Virus record (IMG/VR): IMGVR_UViG_3300045988_052780
Reading direction: 5' to 3' (one strand)
From: a virus
Length of the DNA: 64,000 nucleotides
Position 1 is the first letter of the stretch, and the number at the start of each line of letters is the position of its first letter. The translations under genes and the position numbers were made by a program. Below, piece by piece: positions 13,051 to 63,419 of this stretch. The notes under the pieces are model-generated. The model did not search any database. It was not told the origin of the DNA and saw only the letters and a program-made list of their open reading frames with translations.

Positions 13051-13425
13051 CTAGTAATGCCATTTGTCATAATATAAAGAGAACCTGTATAATCTGTTTG
13101 CAGCCTCAACTGGAGTATGACCATCCCATTCATCAGCTTTCCATCTTTCAGGAACATTGAACAGGTTCCATTCTTCCGCCCTATAATGATTGCTCACTTG
13201 ACCCGTAGGAAGGTTAGCCATAACAATAAACCATCCTCCTCCAAAGCATAGTTCTCCATCTGCATGTCTGTAGGATTTATGGACTTCATATTTACCTTCC
13301 AAGCTGTTAAAGAATGCTGCATTGTACAGCATTCTGTAGTGATATAACTCATCAAAGGTATGAAATCCGTCTGAAACCTCACCTTCAGGTAGGAACAAGT
13401 TCTTTAGTCTTTGTAATAGTCTCAT
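13051..13425 (-). CDS. hypothetical aromatic-rich protein
   Basis: 124 aa ORF. Confidence 0.4.
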   Translation of the reverse strand: MRLLQRLKNLFLPEGEVSDGFHTFDELYHYRMLYNAAFFNSLEGKYEVHKSYRHADGELCFGGGWFIVMANLPTGQVSNHYRAEEWNLFNVPERWKADEWDGHTPVEAANRLYRFSLYYDKWHY

Positions 13426-14351
13426 TAGAATTTACCCTCATTAGGTTGTAAACAAATCAGACCTTCATTACGCCACATTTCCACACATTTGCAATTGTCT
13501 TCAAGTACGAATGGAATATAGTACTTACCTTTGATATTGTCTTCATAGAACTTCTTCTTACATATAGGACCAGCTACGAAGCTATTAGCGGGACGCATAA
13601 GAATCATATCTGGATGTAGGAAGTTATTCTCCAACCACTGTTCTGTAGCTTTACGAACTTCTGGGGTATCTTCCCTACCAGTTAGTATTATTAACTTGGC
13701 AGGATAATTATCACAGAAGTTTCTAATAAGTTCAAGAATAGGAGTAATAGGCTCATCAGTAAGCATACCTTCAGCTGCACCTTCTCCATAGAACGGACGA
13801 CCACTAGTATTCAGACACACAGTTGCATCCATATCTACTATAATTGCTGCTGGTAGGTTAGTGTCTTGAACTAATGCTTTAGCCTTAGCAGCCATAATTT
13901 CCTCATGAATTATGAAGTCTCTATAGCGTCTCCAAGTCTGTCTAATAACTTTCTCACCTATAGGATGTTCTCTTTTAGCATCACGACGAACACACTCATC
14001 TACGGGAGTCCAGAAATCTTTGTATTCAATCTCATACTTCCAATCGTAGGTATAATTCTCGTTAAAGTCCTTAACCATCTTCTCTAACTCTGCACAAGTC
14101 TTAGGATTAAGGTTCATATTATCAACTATGATGTTATAACCTTTCTCCATACTATAAGCTAGTACAGTGTTATAAGTTGCAGTGACAACATCCTCTCTAC
14201 TAGGAACCCAATAGTCTCCCAGCATGTTACGAATATCGTCATTGTTAAATCTTACTCTGTGCTCCGGGTCTTCATGACACCACTGCTTAGCAAAACTAGT
14301 TTTGCCACTTCCCTGAATTCCTCTACAGATTACTAATACTCTAGTTTCCAT
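13425..14351 (-). CDS. pnk: polynucleotide 5'-kinase/3'-phosphatase (T4 Pnk-like)
   Basis: P-loop CRGIQGSGKTS, HAD phosphatase motif IIVDMDATVC, LIILTGRED, and CVEMWRNEGLICLQ (T4 Pnk VVEMWRRIGVECWQV). Confidence 0.9.
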   Translation of the reverse strand: METRVLVICRGIQGSGKTSFAKQWCHEDPEHRVRFNNDDIRNMLGDYWVPSREDVVTATYNTVLAYSMEKGYNIIVDNMNLNPKTCAELEKMVKDFNENYTYDWKYEIEYKDFWTPVDECVRRDAKREHPIGEKVIRQTWRRYRDFIIHEEIMAAKAKALVQDTNLPAAIIVDMDATVCLNTSGRPFYGEGAAEGMLTDEPITPILELIRNFCDNYPAKLIILTGREDTPEVRKATEQWLENNFLHPDMILMRPANSFVAGPICKKKFYEDNIKGKYYIPFVLEDNCKCVEMWRNEGLICLQPNEGKF

Positions 14352-14749
14352 TAATCAATATTACATAAAACATCACTAAATCCGCTATAATCTAAGTCAG
14401 CTAAAATGTCTCGTATAAACGATATGTAATCTCTAGTACTTTGTAAATCCCGTATATATTCCTTAGTGGATATCATCTCCTCTATAAGTTCCGAATTGCC
14501 ATGACAGAATTTCTCGTACTCTACTCGCCTCGCTTCTGCTTTAGCAATGTCATCATCAAGGTCTCGAATTACTGATTCAACATCACTAACAGTGAGTTTA
14601 GTATACTTCTCTTCATTACCAGCATATGCTATACTAAGATTATCAAAGAATCTTTGATACACCTCATTAGACCTACTGAATGATTGAAGTAGTAGCCTCT
14701 CCTCTGGATGTGCTTTAGGCACTAAATAAAATGATAAATAACTACTCAT
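14351..14749 (-). CDS. hypothetical protein
   Basis: 132 aa ORF between pnk and the nucleotidyltransferase. Confidence 0.4.
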   Translation of the reverse strand: MSSYLSFYLVPKAHPEERLLLQSFSRSNEVYQRFFDNLSIAYAGNEEKYTKLTVSDVESVIRDLDDDIAKAEARRVEYEKFCHGNSELIEEMISTKEYIRDLQSTRDYISFIRDILADLDYSGFSDVLCNID

Positions 14750-15540
14750 TTCTCGTTAGTTGGCTTAAGCCACAAGCTAGTTTTAGTAAAGATATAATCT
14801 CTCAGTTCAGTAAGTTCAGATAACCATCCCAATGCTAAAGATGAGTTACATTTAAAGCATTTTGTTAGTTCTTCCCTTATCCTCTCCTCTGATACTACTG
14901 GCATTTTATTGAAATAATCATAAGACTTCATAACTTGCCACATATCTTGAGATACTAGCAACCTTTTAGTAATAGAGAATCTTATACCTCTAAGTATTCT
15001 TAGTGGGTCATCATCGAATGTTGTTATTGGGTCTAATGGGGTTACCAGCAGCCTCCTTGCTAAATGAGTCTTGCCATTAAAGTAGTCTATAATCTCTCCA
15101 GTATCAGGGTCTTTAGCCATAGCGTTGACAGTAAAATCTCTACGAGATAAATCATCATATAGATTACCTGGTTCTACAATGGGAATCCTAGTGCCTGGGA
15201 CATATCCTACTTCCTTCCTTGCCATCACAAAGTCTGCTACACCTTGATACTTATATCCTTCTGGGAATTTAGCACGTATAGTGTAACATTCTGGAGTTAC
15301 TAAGAAGATTTCGAACTTCTGTTCTTCCAAGTAGCTTTTTAATGCTTTAAACATTAGTTGAGCTGGACTAAGCTGAGCTTCACATGGGTGAATTTTACTA
15401 TAGACTGCCTTTGTAGGCACAGCTACATAATCAACATCCTTATTAGTAAGACCTAATAGCTCATCGCGTATCTTACCACCAACTTCGTAGAATTTAAAAT
15501 CTTCCATTTTAATAAAAATATTATTCTTCCATTTTATCAA
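14746..15540 (-). CDS. Pol-beta superfamily nucleotidyltransferase, tRNA CCA/A-adding enzyme head-domain type
   Basis: YEVGGKIRDELLGLTNKDVDYVAV matches the GGxVRDxLLG...DxD signature of CCA-adding/poly(A) polymerase heads. At 264 aa it is shorter than canonical Cca. Confidence 0.6.
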   Translation of the reverse strand: MIKWKNNIFIKMEDFKFYEVGGKIRDELLGLTNKDVDYVAVPTKAVYSKIHPCEAQLSPAQLMFKALKSYLEEQKFEIFLVTPECYTIRAKFPEGYKYQGVADFVMARKEVGYVPGTRIPIVEPGNLYDDLSRRDFTVNAMAKDPDTGEIIDYFNGKTHLARRLLVTPLDPITTFDDDPLRILRGIRFSITKRLLVSQDMWQVMKSYDYFNKMPVVSEERIREELTKCFKCNSSLALGWLSELTELRDYIFTKTSLWLKPTNEK

Positions 15541-16018: not shown

Positions 16019-16244
16019 CCCAATCTATGCTATTTAGTACTTTAAGGACATCTTCGTCTGTCATATACTCGTAATCATATCCTTCTGCTGTTACTATAAA
16101 TTCATCGTCAACTATGCTGACGGCTAATTCGTAAGCATAATCATCAGCGGCTTTAGACATGTTATCATCATACATAGAAGGTGCATAAGCGACCACAAAT
16201 TCATTCTTGCAGTCGTTTATGCACTCAATTAAATATCTATTCAT
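15927..16244 (-). CDS. small highly acidic, aromatic-rich protein (DNA-mimic candidate)
   Basis: 105 aa with many D/E/Y residues. Overlaps the downstream ORF by about 90 nt in another frame. Confidence 0.35.
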   Translation of the reverse strand: MNRYLIECINDCKNEFVVAYAPSMYDDNMSKAADDYAYELAVSIVDDEFIVTAEGYDYEYMTDEDVLKVLNSIDWDEYYNYNITPFEGTDEEFNKYPLIYDGRSI

Positions 16245-17632
16245 TACTGGTCTGCTTCTATATCAATTTCTCCTTTATCTAATGACTTAGACTCCTCTCC
16301 TAAGAATCTAAAGCATTTAAGTTTGTAAGCTTCAGATAAACCATTCTCAATGCGAATCACTATACCTTCATGTGGTACATCATTGTGACATGTAGGTGAA
16401 AGTTCTTCCATGTAGAACCTTTTATCATTAGCTAGCTTTTGGATAAAATTCTCATTCCAATGCTCAGTCTCATCAAGCTCCGGATATAAATCCTTAGCAT
16501 ATCCGTAATATAACTGTTCTACCGGAGTAAGTCCTTTATCTTTACACCACCGTTGTACTTGTCTAGCAGAGAATTCAAATACCACACCATCTGGATTTGT
16601 ATAAGTAATACGGTAAATTTGGATACCGAAATTCTTACCATATTCATACGGTGTAGTCTGAGTAGTAGGATCCCATATAGGTCTCTCATAACCATAGTCA
16701 TAAGCTTTACCATTCATTGCTTGAATAGCCTGACCTGTAGGCAGCCATCCTATGATTTCATAATAAAGAGTAAGTCCTTTAGTAAGATACGGAGACAATT
16801 TAGAATGAGCTTCACCCCAAATATCACAACCATAATATCCTGCACTTGCTTCTTTATTGTAATACTGATTTTTAACTACCTTTCTAGAAGACCATAAGTA
16901 GTCATACTTAGTGTCTGGAACATCTGTGAACCAGCTAGCCACCTTGTCTTTCCATCTTAATGGTCTTTTACATAGTACATCGGCAGAAATACCTGATGTT
17001 CCATGTACTTTGGAAGTAATACTAATAATATCATTAGGTTTAATAACCCAAGGACATTTCTTAATGAGAACAGTATCATAATGAAATCTAAACTGATTCT
17101 CTACTAATTTACTAATGCCTTTAGGCTGCTTAGCTTGCCTAGAAGAATTTCCAGAAGTTTTAGGAGGATTCACTACATACTTCTTACAAAGTATATGTTT
17201 ATCCAAACTATCAAATTCTGTTCCTTCTTTCAAATTGGTAACTACTTCATGAGATTCTCCTATAAAATCCAGCCATTTATATAACGAATCTATAGGCATT
17301 ATAAATCCCTCTGAAGGAACTCCCTGCAACTTAATAGGCTTTACCCTACCATTATCCTCAAAGAAACCTGGAGAAGCTTCCTTGTTAGCATTGAATTCAT
17401 TGTGTCTAAATAGATTATTAGCTGCCAAATATTTATTAGCAATCTGACATCCTACAGGGAAATATATATATTGCCCTGGTTGAGTATCCTTAGATACGGA
17501 TATCATATAACCATCTACATGAACACATTTCATCCTTTCACATTTAGGATTAGGGTGTGGTGTGAAATCTTTTACTTGAATTATCTTAGCTGCATAATTA
17601 ACATTAAACTTAGAAGATTGATTTATACGCAT
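16244..17632 (-). CDS. ATP-dependent RNA ligase (Rnl2/Rnl5-like nucleotidyltransferase with N-terminal extension)
   Basis: Motif I lysine in ITSKVHGTSG (KxHGT, as in T4 Rnl2 KIHGTN) near residue 200. Downstream EGIVIR and KLKCF resemble motifs IV and V. Confidence 0.55.
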   Translation of the reverse strand: MRINQSSKFNVNYAAKIIQVKDFTPHPNPKCERMKCVHVDGYMISVSKDTQPGQYIYFPVGCQIANKYLAANNLFRHNEFNANKEASPGFFEDNGRVKPIKLQGVPSEGFIMPIDSLYKWLDFIGESHEVVTNLKEGTEFDSLDKHILCKKYVVNPPKTSGNSSRQAKQPKGISKLVENQFRFHYDTVLIKKCPWVIKPNDIISITSKVHGTSGISADVLCKRPLRWKDKVASWFTDVPDTKYDYLWSSRKVVKNQYYNKEASAGYYGCDIWGEAHSKLSPYLTKGLTLYYEIIGWLPTGQAIQAMNGKAYDYGYERPIWDPTTQTTPYEYGKNFGIQIYRITYTNPDGVVFEFSARQVQRWCKDKGLTPVEQLYYGYAKDLYPELDETEHWNENFIQKLANDKRFYMEELSPTCHNDVPHEGIVIRIENGLSEAYKLKCFRFLGEESKSLDKGEIDIEADQ

Positions 17633-50497: not shown

Positions 50498-52510
50498 TTA
50501 AAAGTTAACTTTAATGGTTCTTGTAAAGCTGCCAGTAACTTTACAGATAACACTATTGCGGATGGTAGATGAGAATCCTAAACCACTCAACTGATTATCA
50601 GAATAAGGAGCCTTCATCTTATTAGCTAACATCTCAAATGTCTTACGATCCTGAGATAGTTCACTCCTAAGATATTCGTTAAAGAATCCTCTTACTGGAG
50701 ATGGATTCTTGCACCCATCTAAGATAAAGAAATAGTGTTTATTGCCTACTTCTGCACCGTTCCAATAATTTGGAGACAGAGTGAGTAACGATACCTTATG
50801 GAATTTGTTAGTAGACAAGTGCCACGTCTCTTTATCACTTGAATTACTCGGAAGGACATCATGTATGACAATTCCCTTGGCCTTAGAATACTCAAATCTG
50901 GCTACTGTCACTTTATCACGACCTCGAAGATCTGTTGTGTAGGTATACTCACGTACTTCTCCGTTACATTCAATTTCAACAGTAAATCCAACATCGTGAT
51001 AATCTCTTTTGCAGAAATTGTGTACATATACGGTATACATACCTTCCATACGTGGTTCATCCTCCCAGATAACGTTCTCTACTGGTTTACGAGAATGTAT
51101 ACCACCAGCATTCATGTCAACATCTAGCACCCCACCAGAAGCTCCAGTTCTATGTGAATAATAGATTTCATTATCACGTGGTTGTATGATATGGATGTCT
51201 AAATCATCACCATTATACCATGCAAGAGAACACCTTAGATATCCATTCACCTTACCTCCAGCAGCCTGCACCTTATCCTTAATAGAAGAATCTGCAAGGT
51301 CTCCATTGTATGTCCAAGCGAAATTGTTTGGCCATTTAAATAGATTCTTTGCATCTTTATTAGATGGAGCTGTTAGAGTCATAAGGTTGTTTATATGTCT
51401 ACTTTCTAATAGAACTTCTATACTGGTAGCATTGGGAACAACATCCTTAATAAAGTCCTCAATTGATATTTCAGCAACAGTACCTAATTTCTTAGGATTA
51501 ACTGGAATATCTTCCGCTAAATCTTGGAATACACTATTCCCAAGCATTGACTTCTTAGCATTTCTATCAGCAAAGATTACATCATTAACTGTAATGTCAG
51601 TAATTTCTGCATGTCGCCTTGGAAGTGCATCCATTAGCCCTAGTTCAATAACCCTAGCTTCAGCAGCTTGAATCATCTTCTTAGTAGCTATTGTCTTAGG
51701 TCTTTGATAATTAGCAGGAGCTACTATTCTCTCGTAAGCTCTTACACTTTCATCAAGTTCACGTCCATTGGAGATGTCTACAAGCAAAGTGCCTATAGCA
51801 GTATTCCTAATACGTCCTACATATCCAACTTTAGCAGATTCAACCCAGCAGAAATTATCACGTTCCTCGCGGGGTACTACTTCATATTTCTTCTTAAGTG
51901 CAACAAATGCCTCTAGATCGGATTTGTACTGGTCTCCACGATACAAAGAACCTTGTGAAATCAAATCCAGAACAATGTCAAAAGCATCCATGGATAACTC
52001 ATCCAAAGCCCGCTTCAATACTGTTTTATTGGTACGAAGTGCTCCTCTTACTGCTTCTTCAGAATCAGATACTGCACAAAGTAAATGATTAGGAAGCTTG
52101 TAAAATAAATGATTCCATGTATGTACGTGTCTCGTAGGAGTTTCTATCCACACATTGTTCTTATCTGTACCCAGTTTAACCACCTTACTAACAAATACGT
52201 CACATACTGGTTTAGATTTAACAAGTTGGGCTAAGTTTCTGGCTACTGTAGCATAAGGTTCATCTAACACTAAGGAATCCCAAATACTTACTAACTTGTT
52301 ATTAACTATTGCAACTACATTGCCATAAGGTTTGATAAATTGACGACAGCAATTACATGTATGTGATTGTCTCTCGTCTTCTGGATAAGAATCTATGTAA
52401 CAATCCCACAGCTCATCCTTATTAACATTAGTTAAATACAATCTATCAGCATTATTAGCTAAGGCATCAAATTGCTTATAAACTGCTCGTTTAAAATCAA
52501 TAAATTCCAC
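50498..52510 (-). CDS. large hypothetical protein (670 aa) with N-terminal Cys cluster
   Basis: Long uninterrupted ORF containing HTCNCCRQF. No catalytic motif recognised. Confidence 0.5.
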   Translation of the reverse strand: MEFIDFKRAVYKQFDALANNADRLYLTNVNKDELWDCYIDSYPEDERQSHTCNCCRQFIKPYGNVVAIVNNKLVSIWDSLVLDEPYATVARNLAQLVKSKPVCDVFVSKVVKLGTDKNNVWIETPTRHVHTWNHLFYKLPNHLLCAVSDSEEAVRGALRTNKTVLKRALDELSMDAFDIVLDLISQGSLYRGDQYKSDLEAFVALKKKYEVVPREERDNFCWVESAKVGYVGRIRNTAIGTLLVDISNGRELDESVRAYERIVAPANYQRPKTIATKKMIQAAEARVIELGLMDALPRRHAEITDITVNDVIFADRNAKKSMLGNSVFQDLAEDIPVNPKKLGTVAEISIEDFIKDVVPNATSIEVLLESRHINNLMTLTAPSNKDAKNLFKWPNNFAWTYNGDLADSSIKDKVQAAGGKVNGYLRCSLAWYNGDDLDIHIIQPRDNEIYYSHRTGASGGVLDVDMNAGGIHSRKPVENVIWEDEPRMEGMYTVYVHNFCKRDYHDVGFTVEIECNGEVREYTYTTDLRGRDKVTVARFEYSKAKGIVIHDVLPSNSSDKETWHLSTNKFHKVSLLTLSPNYWNGAEVGNKHYFFILDGCKNPSPVRGFFNEYLRSELSQDRKTFEMLANKMKAPYSDNQLSGLGFSSTIRNSVICKVTGSFTRTIKVNF

Positions 52511-56390: not shown

Positions 56391-56784
56391 TTAATACATA
56401 ATCACAATAAGTATCAACAAAATCTTTGGCTTCTTTCAAACCACATTTGGTAGACTCCTTTACATGCTTAACTGCTTGTAGTTTGGTACCCCTCTGCACA
56501 AGCTGCTTCATCTTAAAAAAGTCTTCACATGACAAATCAATTGTATTATTCCAACGCTTCTCGTATGCAAGCATTGCATCATTATACTCTTGAGGATGTT
56601 CTGTCCAAGTGATTTGCTGGTCCAGGATAACTGTACAAGTTCCATCAAGTATATCATACTCTCTGGAATCTACAGTAAATTTGCCAGCTTCTAGCACCAC
56701 TGTGTCTGTAGGGAATGGAATCATCTCTGATGAGATTGATACTTCCTCTATTGTCTTATCGTCTTTTACAAACTTTACGTACAT
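56383..56784 (-). CDS. hypothetical protein
   Basis: 133 aa ORF. Confidence 0.4.
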   Translation of the reverse strand: MYVKFVKDDKTIEEVSISSEMIPFPTDTVVLEAGKFTVDSREYDILDGTCTVILDQQITWTEHPQEYNDAMLAYEKRWNNTIDLSCEDFFKMKQLVQRGTKLQAVKHVKESTKCGLKEAKDFVDTYCDYVLND

Positions 56785-56809
56785 AATCTTTAAGTATTAA
56801 TTAGTAATG

Positions 56810-56846
56810 TGGCGAGAAGGTGACTCGAACACCCAACCTTGCGATT
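56810..56846 (-). tRNA. tRNA-Met/Ile2 (anticodon CAT), 3' exon
   Basis: AA-TCGCA (anticodon 3' stem), AGGTT, GGGTG-TTCGAGT-CACCT, TCTCGCC-A. The acceptor 3' strand is exactly complementary to GGCGAGA at 57544..57550. Confidence 0.6.
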
Positions 56847-57426
56847 ATTTCTTTGGACGTGTGCTCTTAGCATTTAATCGTCCGTAATTCTCAGTTAAGC
56901 TGTGACAATTTGGACACAGTAACTGTAGATTGTCTTCTGAGTTGTTGGTAGCATCACCATCTATGTGGTGAACATGAAGTGGAGGTTCTCCTGTAATCGG
57001 GTGAATCTTATCCCACCCACAAACTTGGCACTTACGTTCATGCTTATCCATGAGATAGTCCCTAATGTGTTTAGAAATGGAACGAGTTCCACACATGCCA
57101 GTTTCTTCACCTTCCTTCCATCTTCTAATGTACTCTTTATGTTTGTACTCGGCTTGACATACGTTGTTACAGTACTTAGTAGTACTGTTATGATTGCTTA
57201 ATTCTTTACCGCAATTTAAACAGACTCTAGTTACTAACTTCTTGCCCTTGTTAAAGGTTTCGTTAGCATTTATACTTCTTCGTTTAACTATGCTGATGTT
57301 AAGTCTCTTAGCAACCCTTCGTATGTTTGAGCCTGTACAGCCGTACATTCTACCAATCTCCTCATAAGACACTTTGTCTGTTAATATTAACCTTTCTAAG
57401 TTCTCTTTCTCTAAATTCCAGTCCAT
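56845..57426 (-). CDS. HNH homing endonuclease with N-terminal HTH
   Basis: HVHHIDGDATNNSEDNLQLLCPNCH is an HNH motif, with CLNCG...CNNVC and CQVCG Zn-binding pairs. The N-terminus has an HTH-like segment YEEIGRMYGCTGSNIRRVAKRL. Confidence 0.75.
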   Translation of the reverse strand: MDWNLEKENLERLILTDKVSYEEIGRMYGCTGSNIRRVAKRLNISIVKRRSINANETFNKGKKLVTRVCLNCGKELSNHNSTTKYCNNVCQAEYKHKEYIRRWKEGEETGMCGTRSISKHIRDYLMDKHERKCQVCGWDKIHPITGEPPLHVHHIDGDATNNSEDNLQLLCPNCHSLTENYGRLNAKSTRPKK

Positions 57427-57513
57427 TTGTATAACTCTTAATTGAATTACAAATGTAATGATTTTAGATAAAGAAACCTAGGAATTCGATTCTTATTAAG
57501 AATTATTAACAGT
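56847..57513 (-). mobile_element. intervening sequence of about 667 nt in the tRNA-CAT anticodon loop, carrying an HNH endonuclease ORF (group-I-intron-like)
   Basis: Separates the 5' half (ending CTCAT in the anticodon loop) from the 3' half of one tRNA. The ORF stop TAA at 56845..56847 abuts the 3' exon. Confidence 0.55.
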
Positions 57514-57550
57514 ATGAGTCGCACGCTCTAACCAGTTGAGCTATCTCGCC
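57514..57550 (-). tRNA. tRNA-Met/Ile2 (anticodon CAT), 5' exon
   Basis: GGCGAGA-TA-GCTC-AACTGGTTA-GAGC-G-TGCGA-CTCAT: canonical acceptor, D arm and anticodon 5' stem, with U33 and CAT at positions 34-36. Confidence 0.6.
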
Positions 57551-57671
57551 ATTAATAAGAACATAAAGCTCGTCGTGTTTACATCGTCACCAATGTAACC
57601 TTAATACCTCCCGTTTGCTTCACTGCCGGCTAGTCTGGCTTTGTCTCCTTATGTTCTTATGGATTTATAAG

Positions 57672-58475
57672 TTAACGATATTTATCGAATATGCTATCTG
57701 TAGCTTCAGTATCCCACATAGTAGCAATAATTGCTCCTATTTCATTTGCCTTAAAGACAATTGGATCCTCAAGCTGACGTTTTCTAGCCTCTTCTTTACC
57801 TGAATACATTCTGATAGTTATATTATCTGTCATAGTATCATAGGGAGCTGCTATACACCAGTCACTGTCATTTAAGGTAAGTGGACTGAAGCTTACACTG
57901 TCCTCAACTTCTGGGTGTCCTATAGCACGCATATATTGCCATCCAGAAGAGATATCGTCCACTACAAACGGGAATCTTGAGAAGTATTCAACGATTTCAT
58001 TTACTATACTCTTTGGCATATCGGAATCTATATCTATTCTAGGAACCCATTGCATGTTATTAATATTCCTTATTTTACGCAATTCCTCTCCGGCCTTTAC
58101 AATAGCTTCAATGTTCTCTTCAGGGATAACTCCCTTATAAGTTGAAATGGGACCACAAGCTAAGTTGTACTTCTTCAATACTTTAAAGAAATCATCATAA
58201 GGAACTATCATACAAGAGGGACTAACTTTCTTGATTCTGTCAATAAGAGAGGCAATTTCATCTCTAGATTTACTAGAACCTTTAGCAGTTAATAGAGTAC
58301 GAAGTACTTCAGCATTCTTAGTTCTACCTAATCCATTAGCTTCCAGCTTAGCAATCTGAGCTTTAATATCTTCTGTCTTATCGACATTCTGCCCTTCCAA
58401 GTATTTCTTACAATACTCCATAGAAGCAACTACTAGGGCATTACGTAGAGCTTCTGCATTCAAATTATTTACCAT
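57672..58475 (-). CDS. hypothetical protein, paralog family B member 2
   Basis: Paralog of 52523..53344 (see that entry). Confidence 0.5.
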   Translation of the reverse strand: MVNNLNAEALRNALVVASMEYCKKYLEGQNVDKTEDIKAQIAKLEANGLGRTKNAEVLRTLLTAKGSSKSRDEIASLIDRIKKVSPSCMIVPYDDFFKVLKKYNLACGPISTYKGVIPEENIEAIVKAGEELRKIRNINNMQWVPRIDIDSDMPKSIVNEIVEYFSRFPFVVDDISSGWQYMRAIGHPEVEDSVSFSPLTLNDSDWCIAAPYDTMTDNITIRMYSGKEEARKRQLEDPIVFKANEIGAIIATMWDTEATDSIFDKYR

Positions 58476-61447: not shown

Positions 61448-62494
61448 CTATGACTCCCTTACATACTCTTCATAAATATACAGTTCAAAGTTAGGTCTTA
61501 TAAACATATCTTTGTCTGTAGCTTCGTCCCAATGAGTAACTATAACCTTCTTGCGAACGTTATGGCTAAACATAGAATCAATATTGAGACTATGCCTAAA
61601 CAAAACTGGATCAAACTCTATAGCCCGGAAAGATTTCTGAAAGTCGTTAAATTGGTTGTTGGGGTCTACAACAGGTCTAACTGGCTTATCAGAAGGAAAC
61701 GGACCGTTACCATGACGCGTTATGTATGGTCTAGTAACGTAATTAACCGTAACGGTGTCATTACATCCAATTTGTTTTAGTATTCGATGAGCATTCTGTG
61801 ATGTTGTATTAGATGGAGTGCAATGGGGCATTATTCCGAATCTTTGGTCTAATAATATACCTTGAGAACCTTCAAAGATAAGATTGTCGTAATCTTCCCA
61901 TATAGCTTCTAAGGTACTTACTTGGACAGTGTTGAAATATGCATTCACAGTTCTGCACCAATTATCCAAGTCAATTGATGGATATACACTATTCATGTGA
62001 TAATAGTTGTCTGCTATTGCATTAACTTTCTCCCTAAGAATATGTATATTCAAGCAATCTATAACCATAAGATTATACCCCGACTTCACTCGGTCTAAAC
62101 ACGTTTTAAAACCAGTCCCTACAGTACCATGACGTAGATTTACTACGTCACTTACTTGGGAATAGACGTCGAATGGTACTATGACTTGACATAATGGATT
62201 ATAAATAATTTTAGGAGTAATACCTAATTTCTTTAAATCCATTGCTTCAAGTGTAGAGGTTACTGGGTCTACAGTACAGTATTCAGACCAATATGTAGGC
62301 ACTCCTAGCAAGGTTCCACTTCCAAAGTTACTAAATGTGTGCATAAGGTCTCCGTATTTAACAGTATGGCCAACTTGATGTCCACCACTAAACCTTATTA
62401 CAAGTGAGTTCTCTGGATTCTTAGCACATATATTATGTACCGTCTGTCCCTTACCTTCATCGCCCATAAATGAGCCTAACACTATACTAATCAT
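61448..62494 (-). CDS. adenylosuccinate synthetase homolog, short form (PurA/PurZ-like); start moved to Met37 of the track ORF
   Basis: GSFMGDEGKGQTV P-loop and FSGGHQVGHTV match the PurA GDEGKGK / GGxNAGHT blocks. At about 348 aa it lacks roughly 80 aa relative to bacterial PurA. ATG at 62494..62492 leaves a 4 nt gap after the upstream vWA gene instead of a 104 nt overlap. Confidence 0.6.
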   Translation of the reverse strand: MISIVLGSFMGDEGKGQTVHNICAKNPENSLVIRFSGGHQVGHTVKYGDLMHTFSNFGSGTLLGVPTYWSEYCTVDPVTSTLEAMDLKKLGITPKIIYNPLCQVIVPFDVYSQVSDVVNLRHGTVGTGFKTCLDRVKSGYNLMVIDCLNIHILREKVNAIADNYYHMNSVYPSIDLDNWCRTVNAYFNTVQVSTLEAIWEDYDNLIFEGSQGILLDQRFGIMPHCTPSNTTSQNAHRILKQIGCNDTVTVNYVTRPYITRHGNGPFPSDKPVRPVVDPNNQFNDFQKSFRAIEFDPVLFRHSLNIDSMFSHNVRKKVIVTHWDEATDKDMFIRPNFELYIYEEYVRES

Positions 62495-62498
62495 GATT

Positions 62499-63419
62499 TT
62501 AATAGAAATTTTGTTTGTCTTCGGTAGTTGTACTACTAGAAGCATCACTAGGAGTTTCTGCATACACAGGCTCCTCGTAATTGTCTTTAATTGCTTTAGC
62601 AATTACTTTATCCACTTCATCAGATTTGCACATTAGTACATTCTGTCCAAGTAGATTCTTCCAAGATTCAGCCACCCTTGTGCCATAACTGGCATTAGTA
62701 ATGTGAATGTGGAATACATGGTACTGCTCTTGTGCTTTCAGAATTGCTTCATTAGCACTAATAGAACCAGCACCTTTTTGATACCCTAGAATTTCAGTCA
62801 AACTGTTACCTGGGATTCCTTGTAGATTAGGTTCATCACCAATAGTAAACAAGAATCCTTTAGTGTGTCTTTTGAACCAAGAATCGGTTTCAGTGTGATA
62901 TCCTGCAACTATGTGAGCTAATAAATAGCTCTCACCTGCATTACCACCACCTCCACCTTCTATTACTAAGGACTCTAATGAATTTAGAATCTTCTCAGTA
63001 TCAGATTCAAACTGTCCAACCTGAATAGGATATCTATCGAATTCGTGGTCTCCAACTGCCATAAACAACAATTGAGGATCACGTACTCCCATTTGCATGA
63101 CAGAATCCATAATCTTAGGTAAATGGTTCTTAATCATTTCATAAGGAGTATTCATCATTGAACCAGTAACATCTAGTGCAATGATTATCGGAGTAGAGTA
63201 TGGATGTTCTTGAGAGTCACGACACTCACGAACTCCAACATTGACCATTTCAGCTTTAACTTGAGTATTAAAGCTACGTGCATTTACATTAAATGACGCT
63301 GCTGTATTACTAGCATTTACTGAAATGTTCTTAAAGAGCTGGTCACGCGATGCTTTAGCATATCCTCTATCATCGGATAAAGTTCTATAAGCAATACTAC
63401 TGTAAACACCACTTCCCAT
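62499..63419 (-). CDS. von Willebrand factor A (vWA) domain protein
   Basis: MIDAS motif IIIALDVTGSM (DxSxS). Paired with the AAA+ ATPase two genes upstream, as in MoxR/CobST-type systems. Confidence 0.6.
   Translation of the reverse strand: MGSGVYSSIAYRTLSDDRGYAKASRDQLFKNISVNASNTAASFNVNARSFNTQVKAEMVNVGVRECRDSQEHPYSTPIIIALDVTGSMMNTPYEMIKNHLPKIMDSVMQMGVRDPQLLFMAVGDHEFDRYPIQVGQFESDTEKILNSLESLVIEGGGGGNAGESYLLAHIVAGYHTETDSWFKRHTKGFLFTIGDEPNLQGIPGNSLTEILGYQKGAGSISANEAILKAQEQYHVFHIHITNASYGTRVAESWKNLLGQNVLMCKSDEVDKVIAKAIKDNYEEPVYAETPSDASSSTTTEDKQNFY

Follow-up and report, generated by a model that had tools for sequence, protein, structure and literature searches.

The prevailing view is that a homing endonuclease gene persists within another gene only under cover of an intron or an intein, and that such genes otherwise reside between genes. 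In phage tRNA clusters, the HNH nucleases F-TflI, F-TflII as well as F-TflIV of T5 and the GIY-YIG nuclease SegB of T4 are encoded by free-standing genes whose ends abut or overlap tRNA genes, and these genes display presence/absence polymorphism among related phages, DNA-level spread with co-conversion and tight expression control (PMC2330249). Group I introns occupy the anticodon loops of bacterial tRNA genes, including tRNA-Ile(CAU) of Azoarcus, tRNA-Leu and tRNA-fMet of cyanobacteria and tRNA-Asn and tRNA-Asp of Patescibacteria, and some of them carry an HNH gene (PMC13011429). An intron-less insertion is found in Aeromonas phage Aeh1, where the endonuclease gene mobE lies in nrdA and the gene survives in two pieces ('genes in pieces'). 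The 'fractured genes' carry a homing endonuclease between the halves of a split intein (PMC2677866). Protein-only joining of tRNA halves broken in the anticodon loop is represented by archaeal bulge-helix-bulge (BHB) introns and split tRNAs and by the Pnkp/Rnl1 pair of T4.

The window analyzed here, a 64,000-nt stretch of viral DNA (IMG/VR record IMGVR_UViG_3300045988_052780), contains a minus-strand elongator-type tRNA(CAU) gene interrupted in the anticodon loop by a 667-nt insert (56847-57513) that constitutes a complete HNH homing-endonuclease cassette. Like the T5 and T4 genes, the cassette is embedded in a tRNA cluster and belongs to a family whose ORF ends abut or overlap tRNA genes, but it is located inside a tRNA gene rather than between two of them, resulting in a split tRNA. 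It shares the anticodon-loop site and the possibility of an HNH ORF with the tRNA group I introns, whereas a terminal G, P1/P7 and space for a catalytic core are absent and the ORF reaches the exon. The gene in two pieces resembles Aeh1 nrdA; however, the pieces in Aeh1 and the fractured genes are protein pieces that reassemble or trans-splice, while those in the window are tRNA halves, for which we know of no reassembly route in bacteria. Homologues of Pnkp and RNA ligase are encoded in the window, but neither a BHB motif nor, among the ORFs examined, a splicing endonuclease was seen. None of the publications turned up by a literature search described a tRNA gene interrupted by an endonuclease gene alone. 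On balance, the locus is best read as a case of homing without an intron, in which a dispensable tRNA is split and probably inactivated.

The 5' half of the tRNA (57514..57550, minus strand) comprises the acceptor 5' strand, the D arm, the anticodon-stem 5' strand and C32-U36, and reads GGCGAGA UA GCUC..GAGC G UGCGA CUCAU from 57550 to 57514, the same or nearly the same as the 5' part of the uninterrupted alleles L001, L002 and L019-L029. The 3' half (56810..56846, minus strand) comprises A37, A38, the anticodon-stem 3' strand, the variable loop, the T arm, the acceptor 3' strand and the discriminator A, and reads AA UCGCA AGGUU GGGUG UUCGAGU CACCU UCUCGCC A from 56846 to 56810, without any difference from the 3' part of L019-L029; CCA is not encoded at its end. 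Across the insert, the 7-bp acceptor stem and the 5-bp anticodon stem are perfectly complementary. ARAGORN did not call the gene without intron search, while ARAGORN -i recovered tRNA-Met(cat) at c[56809,57550] with an intron of 667 nt; no second tRNA(CAU) was called by ARAGORN within the 64-kb window. The coordinates proposed for the split tRNA in an earlier note, made from the sequence alone, were exact, and its assignment of both halves to one tRNA was borne out by the sequence, by ARAGORN -i and by uninterrupted relatives.

These relatives are 13 viral contigs in which the same tRNA is uninterrupted at the syntenic site (...GCGACTCAT|AATCGCAAGG...), and therefore the two halves are one gene from which no bases were lost and to which none were gained. 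The possibility that the halves are unrelated tRNA fragments or a chance resemblance is ruled out by the same alleles, and an assembly artefact is likewise ruled out because the split form is present in several independent assemblies (L030, L031, L032-35, L037-39). The 193-aa ORF between the halves (56845..57426, minus strand) was identified as an HNH endonuclease by Pfam (HNH, PF01844, E=3e-7), in agreement with the earlier note. Its stop codon TAA (56847-56845) spans the boundary between insert and exon, as had also been noticed, and takes in the tRNA bases A37 and A38. On the 3' side, 0 nt of non-coding sequence separates the stop codon from the exon, and the less than 90 nt expected on the 5' side were measured as 87 AU-rich nt with promoter- and ribosome-binding-site-like elements. 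A TA repeat at the junction shifts the boundary by 1 nt either way, leaving three possible positions for the cut (35/36, 36/37 or 37/38). This repeat might suggest the target duplication of a Tc1/IS630-like transposon, a candidate rejected for want of a transposase and because a 2-nt repeat is within chance.

Besides the window, interrupted alleles were found in eight independent contigs (L030, L031, L032-35, L037-39) and decayed alleles in two (L003 and L036). Metagenomes ERZ1673743, SRR31708052, SRR8133847, ERR11564793 and ERR14042398 contain the interrupted form. The insert of the window and that of L030 differ at 0 of 667 positions, while the upstream flanks differ at 5 of 147; the cassette is thus mobile and was recently transferred, the same 667-nt copy residing in a different genetic background. 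L032-35, L037/38 and L039 carry diverged copies at this site of the tRNA, and the tRNA(CAU) of L037/L038 is more distant than those of the other interrupted alleles. Synonymous divergence between same-site copies is near saturation (dS 0.55-2.3), with dN/dS of 0.04-0.13, demonstrating purifying selection on the nuclease. Decay is seen at several loci, as the 5' exon and 37 codons are gone in L003, the tRNA 5' end is gone in L036, and the CAU anticodon is missing from L132. At 8 of 64 loci, the 3' portion of an otherwise absent tRNA begins at the HNH stop as an orphan, and in L065 an intact tRNA-Ala has been restored upstream of the cassette.

The nuclease belongs to a large family with 1720 homologues at E<=1e-10, and the invariant C/H/N motif is present across the 38 homologues that were aligned. 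A tRNA lies within 150 nt at 72 of 80 IMG/VR family loci, and at 39 of the 80 the ORF end is within 25 nt of the next tRNA or overlaps it. Only 2 of the 80 loci are inside a tRNA and the other 78 do not span one, a count biased by the use of ARAGORN for the census, which sees only anticodon-loop inserts. Annotated examples of the family occur in the crAss-like phage cr116_1 and the T5-like phage HdH2, and the HdH2 homologue, 46% identical, ends exactly at the start of tRNA-Thr. Altogether, this appears to be a large HNH family that is resident in phage tRNA clusters and targets tRNA genes. What the window adds is a member of such a very large, tRNA-cluster-specific family standing bare inside a tRNA gene, across copies near synonymous saturation.

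The 5' UTR of the cassette contains several candidate expression signals on the minus strand. A promoter- or operator-like TCGAA box (57485..57489) is kept in every copy of the element, and 20 of 38 unique family members have TCGAA at -85..-40, compared with 1 of 38 control windows. The octamer TACATTTG (57450..57457), 24 nt upstream of the ATG, matches TAnnTTTG, which we take to be the Bacteroidota promoter consensus (-7), and may therefore serve as a promoter; this motif is retained in L032, L037, L039 and L132 and occurs at -50..-15 in 13/38 family members versus 0/38 controls. No sigma-70-type promoter was found on the minus strand at the cassette. The purine-rich UAAGAG (57435..57440) resembles a ribosome-binding site in sequence and in position relative to the ATG and is conserved among copies. 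Judged from their sequences, the two boxes, the putative ribosome-binding site and the 5' stem described below are family traits common to free-standing homologues, and would equip the cassette with its own expression signals, independent of an intron or intein. A pattern scan of IMG/VR for the cassette 5' UTR yielded 74 loci, but an HNH gene was present at none of them.

The 5' stem, referred to as P-x, is formed by insert nt 2-10 (CUGUUAAUA, 57504..57512, minus strand) and ORF codons 14-17 (UAUUAACAG, 57378..57386, minus strand). These 9 bp close the 5' domain in minimum free energy (MFE) folds and are retained in L039, in L032 with one U.G, in L037 with a compensatory U-A to A-U change and in L132 with two wobbles. 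Of 200 column shuffles, a single one produced a conserved helix of 9 bp. Comparable stems of at least 9 bp between the 5' UTR and codons 11-16 were found in 12 of 38 family members versus 13% in six control windows, and translational control by P-x may be envisaged. The 742-nt precursor is predicted to retain all four tRNA stems around a self-folded insert (MFE; z=-10.2), and the ORF RNA is unusually structured as well (z=-4.5), although strong mRNA structure is also a property of free-standing homologues. RNAalifold predicts a long-range helix joining the ORF ends, between codons 19-26 (UGUCUUAUGAGGAGAUUGGUAG, 57350..57371, minus strand) and codons 159-166 (CUACCAACAACUCAGAAGACA, 56931..56951, minus strand). 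The predicted duplex reaches -20 to -25 kcal/mol only in the window, L039, L032 and L037, being strong only in copies with intact tRNA halves; its strands lie in a zone of low synonymous divergence, and covariation gave it no support. Two further pairings were discarded: that of the insert 3' end (AAAGAAA) with UUUCUUU of the 5' UTR lacks conservation in both L032 and L037, and that of the anticodon loop with UGUGGGU of the ORF, with one covarying column in ~744^2 pairs and absent in L132, was taken as chance.

In the favoured reading, the insert would on balance be an autonomous mobile HNH homing-endonuclease gene cassette that lacks a surrounding intron ribozyme, has an ORF ending at the last possible base and lies directly where the tRNA(CAU) gene encodes its anticodon loop. 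The earlier note had preferred a group I intron and offered a different kind of tRNA-interrupting mobile element as its fallback; the fallback came closer, now taking the form of a homing-endonuclease cassette of the free-standing type without splicing RNA. Spread would occur at the DNA level, the nuclease presumably cutting the uninterrupted allele of a co-infecting relative, after which repair would copy the cassette, on occasion together with a few bases of the adjoining exon. Self-splicing is not envisaged for the RNA, and the two halves would be transcribed joined by the highly structured HNH mRNA. The tRNA is probably broken rather than spliced, since the insert lacks the self-splicing RNA usual for such insertions. 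Most likely it is lost for decoding, a loss that the phage could tolerate given the accessory nature of phage tRNAs. Should the tRNA be dead, the locus represents a clean natural case of intron-less homing into a dispensable RNA gene, with the whole cycle of invasion, decay and tRNA restoration by duplication visible in metagenomes, and it would account for the failure of tRNA finders to detect certain genes in phage tRNA clusters.

Speaking against this reading, both halves are flawless in the window, L030, L032-35 and L037-39, and three different anticodon stems are complementary across the insert (UGCGA/UCGCA, UAGGA/CCCUA and UGGGA/CCCCA). The lack of a second tRNA(CAU) call in the 64-kb window also counts against it. 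Such stems can be explained by repeated homing into intact alleles, and would also be explained by continued selection on the tRNA. The UAGGA/CCCUA anticodon arm also exists in uninterrupted tRNAs of other, unrelated phage contigs. Among uninterrupted alleles, 0 with an L037-type stem turned up in a search. Exon conservation was rejected as a test of tRNA function, as the flanks are closely related phage backbones whose divergence is outpaced by the cassette; intact halves prove nothing on function for the same reason.

The alternative that survives best, though unlikely, is protein-dependent splicing or repair, in which an endoribonuclease of host or phage cuts a cloverleaf-shaped precursor at both junctions, Pnkp heals the ends and RNA ligase seals them to yield a functional tRNA. 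T4 Pnkp and Rnl1 are known to reseal tRNA-Lys cut by the anticodon nuclease, and clustered genes in the window encode Pnkp (13425-14351, kinase and HAD phosphatase), a CCA-adding enzyme (14746-15540) and an RNA ligase (16244-17632). Together with the predicted retention of the cloverleaf, these enzymes make RNA-level rescue conceivable, if at rather low probability. The predicted helix uniting the ORF ends only in intact-half copies, and the intact halves and complementary stems in four diverged lineages, are consistent with it. Moreover, tRNA anticodon loops in related large phages contain non-group-I inserts of 42-64 nt that would likewise need removal without a ribozyme; no report of phage tRNA mini-introns was found in the literature search. 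On the other hand, T4 repair deals with a single nick and not with a 667-nt excision, no nuclease for two precise cuts is known or was identified, and the junctions bear no BHB or other recognizable cleavage motif. Sets of Pnkp and ligase are common anti-defence genes in large phages and thus not specific evidence, strong mRNA structure recurs in free-standing homologues, and the tRNA was lost or replaced in several lineages, including L132, L003, L036 and those with orphan or resolved 3' halves.

A ribozyme-free, 'protein-spliced' phage tRNA intron, with the structured HNH RNA self-folded so that the halves can adopt the cloverleaf, and with endoribonuclease excision followed by Pnkp and RNA ligase resealing and CCA addition, is put forward as a doubtful candidate. 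This route may also remove the 42-64-nt hairpin+UAACAGCAAG inserts that tRNAs of related large phages carry. A ligated mature tRNA(CAU) junction would read ...GCGACUCAUAAUCGCAAGG... with a window-type T arm, and sequencing reads of a rescued tRNA would contain ...GAGCGUGCGACUCAUAAUCGCAAGGUUGGGUG... Enzymatic tRNA splicing is, to our knowledge, not known in bacteria, and a rescued tRNA would reveal such a route in bacteriophages, which, if carried out by proteins, would parallel in viruses of bacteria the enzymatic tRNA splicing of eukaryotes and archaea.

Similarly unlikely is a scaffold role, in which the halves would no longer decode and the cloverleaf around the HNH mRNA would instead provide RNase P, RNase Z and CCA-adding sites together with protected ends, allowing orderly processing of the polycistronic tRNA transcript to the benefit of the cassette or the phage. 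Besides the cloverleaf predicted for the precursor, L132 fits this role, since its acceptor, D and T arms are perfect, with compensatory changes relative to L037, while its anticodon loop has no CAU. Free-standing nuclease ORFs of T4 and T5 overlap tRNA genes too, with tRNA processing regarded as a limit on their expression (PMC2330249). However, co-conversion can account for L132 equally well, with cassette-adjacent bases moving along and decaying and the recipient allele supplying the outer arms. In addition, most family members have no enclosing tRNA. The artificial 'spliced' constructs of L132 submitted to ARAGORN were set aside, the program being too permissive to inform.

A self-splicing group I intron, or another ribozyme, with a core overlapping coding sequence is very improbable. 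All bacterial tRNA group I introns lie at the anticodon-loop position, the 3'-terminal G is required, and a G-to-C change abolishes exon ligation (PMC13011429). The 5' exon of the window can be written as ending in U36, but the insert ends in ...GAAAU/A, which makes A, U or A the last base in the three registers available. A terminal G is obtained in the window, L030, L032-35, L039 and L132 only at the cost of an 8- to 11-nt anticodon loop, although in L037 a CATA repeat formally permits a U33|...G|C34 boundary. An internal guide sequence for CUCAU is absent, with no GUGAG/AUGAG-like guide, and insert nt 2-10 pair instead with codons 14-17. Conserved P3-P9 elements are also absent, the 0 nt 3' of the ORF leave no room for P7-P9, R/S-like strings are not conserved among copies, and the predicted consensus fold has no group I topology. 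The structured ORF RNA might hint at a ribozyme, but the similarly structured free-standing homologues indicate that it is not special to split copies.

The Rfam intron models suggested as a check gave no match at E<=10 in 56700-57700 and none at gathering score in the whole window, and no ribozyme family was matched either. This silence is weak evidence against a group I intron, as the group I model (RF00028) likewise failed to detect the introns of L005 and L006, which are genuine and carry ORFs, and boundary rules and manual comparison were relied on because Rfam had failed on these evident cases. The tRNA-Thr group I intron of L005, which harbours a homologous HNH gene, displays by eye GGGGAAACCUA, AGAGACU, AGUCC and a terminal G, all of which are missing in the window insert. 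Group II introns are recognized by a GUGYG 5' end, an AY 3' end, domain V and a reverse-transcriptase ORF; the insert starts with (U)ACUGUU, gave no Rfam group II match and encodes HNH only, and this class was rejected.

Least credible of all is an archaeal/eukaryal-type BHB intron at the canonical 37/38 position excised by a splicing endonuclease: the TA ambiguity permits the 37/38 junction, stem P-x would then begin at the first intron base, and archaeal BHB introns can carry homing endonuclease genes, but the partner of the 5'-junction stem is ~120 nt downstream and far from the 3' junction, the two 3-nt bulges with splice sites and the 4-bp helix between them that define the motif are absent from the junction-region and whole-precursor folds, no EndA-like gene is among the ORFs examined, and promoter type, tRNA features and every relative indicate bacteriophages.

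Megablast and blastn searches of the region against 50,697 phage records returned no match. Elsewhere in the window, the ORF at 50498-52510 has its best match, at 47%, in Klebsiella phages.

The tRNA(CAU) gene on the minus strand consists of a 5′ half (57550-57514), which holds the first 36 tRNA positions with acceptor GGCGAGA, D arm, anticodon-stem strand UGCGA and CUCAU, and a 3′ half (56846-56810) with AA, UCGCA, variable loop AGGUU, T arm GGGUG-UUCGAGU-CACCU, acceptor UCUCGCC and discriminator A, ending without CCA at this locus. Between the halves lies an HNH ORF of 193 codons (57426-56845, minus strand; Pfam HNH, E=3e-7), whose TAA stop is formed by the last insert base together with A37 and A38 of the tRNA. 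The coordinates and description of these elements in the earlier note were borne out by re-reading of the sequence, the ORF list and Pfam. The split gene was called neither by ARAGORN in default mode nor by the Rfam tRNA model; with intron search, ARAGORN recovered tRNA-Met(cat) c[56809,57550] across a 667-nt intron. Owing to a TA repeat at the junction, the cut position is ambiguous between 35/36, 36/37 and 37/38.

An exact-match scan with the 5′ half revealed the same tRNA in continuous form (...GCGACTCATAATCGCAAGG...) in two related viral contigs, L001 and L002, flanked as in the window by a conserved RNA element on the upstream side and by the ORF MFVKFVKDDK... downstream. Scanning with the 3′ half added 11 further contigs, in ten of which the tRNA is uninterrupted and has the same T arm as the window. 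This comparison with phages free of the insertion, which the earlier note had proposed, established that the halves are one gene, and the syntenic uninterrupted alleles demonstrate that the insertion brought in 667 nt without any loss of sequence. Immediately 5′ of the tRNA lies a conserved structured RNA of ~105 nt (57555-57660, minus strand) with a 14-bp closing stem AUAAGAACAUAAGG / CUUUAUGUUCUUAU and no Rfam family match; the 125-nt region 57551-57675 has an MFE of -29 kcal/mol (z=-3.4). It is found in relatives both with and without the HNH insert, with a different inner hairpin between the same flanks in contig L026, and L001-type relatives feature an additional structured non-coding stretch, ~140 nt long, upstream.

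The HNH protein family is very large (1720 database clusters, E<=1e-10), and its annotated phage members are named HNH endonucleases and located in tRNA clusters. For instance, the family gene occupies the gap between tRNA-Leu and tRNA-Arg in crAss-like cr116_1, ends on the first base of tRNA-Thr in T5-like HdH2, and lies among twelve tRNAs in Enterococcus phage iF6. Among 80 IMG/VR loci collected with the family profile, a tRNA is at most 150 nt away in 72, and in 39 no more than 25 nt separate the end of the reading frame from the next tRNA, or the two overlap; only two lie inside a tRNA. The non-coding sequence 5′ of the ORF, put at under 90 nt in the earlier note, measures 87 nt and is AU-rich, with hairpins, a TCGAA box, a TAnnTTTG box and a ribosome-binding site. 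Both boxes recur 5′ of free-standing members (TCGAA in 20/38 unique family members versus 1/38 controls, TAnnTTTG in 13/38 versus 0/38), and the window's leader is not peculiar to insertion in a tRNA.

A stem between the cassette start and codons ~11-16 is also enriched in the family, reaching at least 9 bp in 12/38 members versus 13% in control windows. In the window this stem, P-x, pairs 57512-57504 with 57386-57378 (minus strand) over 9 bp, beginning at the second insert base. All 9 bp are retained in the related loci L039, L032 (with a U.G pair), L132 (with two wobbles) and L037, where a U-A to A-U change is compensated via a synonymous Ile codon, and a conserved helix of this length appeared in 1/200 column shuffles. 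Since the promoter-like boxes sit between its two strands, P-x can form only in read-through transcripts, whose translation it would repress by analogy. Translational repression of read-through RNA is known for other phage homing endonucleases, including I-TevI and MobE. The same logic has been discussed for SegB and the T5 enzymes (PMC2330249). With boxes and a leader stem that recur in the family, the insert is a minimal self-contained endonuclease cassette, opening with a presumed regulatory stem and closing with a stop codon. Set against known systems, it is a new form of the T5 F-TflI/II/IV and T4 SegB type, in which free-standing homing endonucleases reside in phage tRNA clusters, and is closest in spirit to mobE, which splits nrdA in phage Aeh1.

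The insert in contig L030 is identical to that of the window at 667/667 positions while the 147 nt upstream contain five differences, which amounts to recent lateral transfer; an extra stretch of ~140 nt lies farther up. The genes of the homologous proteins P0001-P0003 (93%, 81% and 78% identical) all interrupt a tRNA(CAU) at this position. L039 and L032-35 have the same phage backbone, and L037/38 belong to a phage of 188 kb, with compensatory changes in every arm of its tRNA. With dS of 0.55-2.3 and dN/dS of 0.04-0.13 among the tRNA(CAU)-borne copies, the nuclease is functional and its association with this site is old. Exon differences among the alleles are concentrated in the anticodon arm beside the insert (UGCGA/UCGCA, UAGGA/CCCUA, UGGGA/CCCCA), and all three variants are still complementary across it. 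As the UAGGA...CCCUA arm also occurs in uninterrupted tRNAs of other phages, the complementary stems can be explained as those of functional alleles, either the recipient's or co-converted ones, and do not have to reflect selection acting once the insert was in place.

Several relatives display decay of the split gene. In L003, a 95%-identical gene carries one deletion that takes out the 5′ exon, the leader, 37 codons and a portion of the upstream RNA element; in L036 the tRNA is missing its first ~19 nt. L132 encodes a 60% identical protein with the same leader and P-x; its tRNA has perfect acceptor, D and T arms, but the anticodon stem is poor and UAAUUU stands in place of CUCAUA. In 8/64 unique family loci, the stop codon runs straight into an orphan tRNA 3′ part, the T loop being 10-28 nt past the stop; such parts begin at the HNH stop codon in L049, L078 and L102. 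In L065, an intact tRNA-Ala (1327-1399) just upstream of the cassette is accompanied by a 77%-identical copy of its 3′ part after the stop codon (about 2056-2090), which looks like a restored tRNA beside the old split one. The recurrence in the family of a stop codon flush with tRNA position 38/39 suggests that these enzymes target anticodon-loop DNA and that genomes regain an intact tRNA by duplication, a pattern that argues against the split form being functional, or at least fully so.

Two more tRNA-internal members were observed. At L007 2709-3430 (same contig as L101), an ORF-only insert of 646 nt, without terminal G, separates C32 from U33 of a clean tRNA-Ile(GAU); at L067 1356-2064, in a TGA-recoded phage, the tRNA 3′ side has no proper anticodon-stem strand. 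Otherwise conserved HNH genes contain in-frame stop codons in L063, L064, L067 (TGA at an expected Trp position), L073, L075, L078 and L083, indicating stop-codon recoding in these phages, and suppressor-like tRNAs (anticodons UUA, UCA) occur in L007, L050 and L130.

The locus is read, with somewhat better than even confidence, as the outcome of intron-less homing, in which an HNH cassette of the free-standing type entered the anticodon-loop DNA of the tRNA(CAU), a phage tRNA that would be dispensable and would lose its decoding function once split. Enzymatic rescue of the tRNA by nuclease cleavage followed by heal-and-seal is unlikely. In its favour, the predicted fold of the 742-nt precursor retains all four tRNA stems with the insert as a closed domain, and the window encodes side by side a Pnkp-like kinase with HAD phosphatase (13425-14351), a head-domain protein of the CCA-adding or poly(A)-polymerase type (14746-15540) and a 462-aa RNA ligase (16244-17632), all on the minus strand, the last matching the PHROG RNA ligase family and no Pfam or PDB sequence. 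Rescue is opposed by the recurring stop-flush junction and the apparent regain of tRNAs by duplication. The fold, the predicted long-range pairing within the ORF and the repair genes fit an RNA in which the halves would meet, which could serve tRNA rescue or merely processing and stability of the nuclease mRNA; that the cloverleaf is kept as a scaffold for this mRNA is quite unlikely as well.

The precursor has an MFE of -209.6 kcal/mol, against -158.9+/-5.0 in a small set of 20 shuffled sequences (z=-10.2), the ORF alone gives z=-4.5, and two neighbouring genes give -0.3 and -2.4. With a custom dinucleotide shuffle, the five tRNA-borne copies ranged from -2.5 to -7.0 and eight free-standing homologues from -0.8 to -6.9, so strong mRNA structure is largely a family trait. 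RNAalifold predicted nested long-range helices, the outermost, without covariation support, pairing codons 19-26 with 159-166 at -20 to -25 kcal/mol in the window, L039, L032 and L037, compared with -4 to -17 in 36 other homologues and -4.9 in L132. Its strands coincide with two zones of reduced synonymous divergence, codons 11-40 and 151-190 of the HNH gene (56848-57426, minus strand). Similarly strong mRNA structure is seen in several free-standing homologues, L084 (z=-6.9) among them.

A group I intron or other ribozyme, the former being the favoured reading of the earlier note, is highly improbable. In bacterial tRNA genes, group I introns invariably follow a 5′ exon that ends in U and themselves end in G, and exon ligation is abolished when this G is changed (PMC13011429). 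The insert offers a terminal G in none of its three registers, and taking the nearest G as its end would give an anticodon loop of 8-11 nt. No insert sequence is left 3′ of the ORF, no guide sequence for CUCAU follows the junction, and P7-like strings (GAGACU, CGUCC) are present but not kept among insert copies. The proposed search of Rfam intron models returned no match at E<=10, which carries little weight because the group I model also missed, at E<=0.1, the evident introns of L005 and L006, which are ORF-bearing or long and at related loci. In L005, a homologous HNH ORF is looped out of an IC-type core (GGGGAAACCUA..., GUAGAGACU..., AGUCCAGACUACA..., terminal G), whereas the window insert has none of these elements and no terminal G. 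A bulge-helix-bulge intron is practically negligible, its features being absent, group II was rejected on the same ground, and the insert belongs to no intron class.

Genuine group I introns were found in phage tRNA genes at L005 3008-3660 (tRNA-Thr(UGU)), L006 4550-5232 (tRNA-Leu(UAA), interrupted at 34/35) and L117 835-1104 (tRNA-Arg(UCU), 197-nt intron). In addition, inserts of 42-64 nt occupy tRNA anticodon loops of several large phage contigs (170-300 kb): L007 4820-4939, 4945-5064 and 5073-5206, L004 336-452, L128 2612-2728, L066 1048-1170, L119 329-454 and L120 3180-3294. All comprise a hairpin followed by (U/A)AACAGCAA(G), and the 646-nt insert of L007 likewise has AAACAG 11 nt before its 3′ junction. 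The Rfam tRNA model aligns these tRNAs with 49-71 nt instead of a 7-nt loop, and some mature loops are hard to reconstruct. The mini-inserts are too small for group I introns; no report of them in phage tRNAs was found in the literature, and they may be more novel than the split tRNA(CAU) itself.

Elsewhere in the window, an ORF at 61448-62602 (minus strand) matches the PHROG family '2-aminooxy adenylosuccinate synthetase' (PurZ-like), and an Adenylsucc_synt gene occupies the same neighbourhood in L037; the DNA of the window phage may contain 2-aminoadenine.
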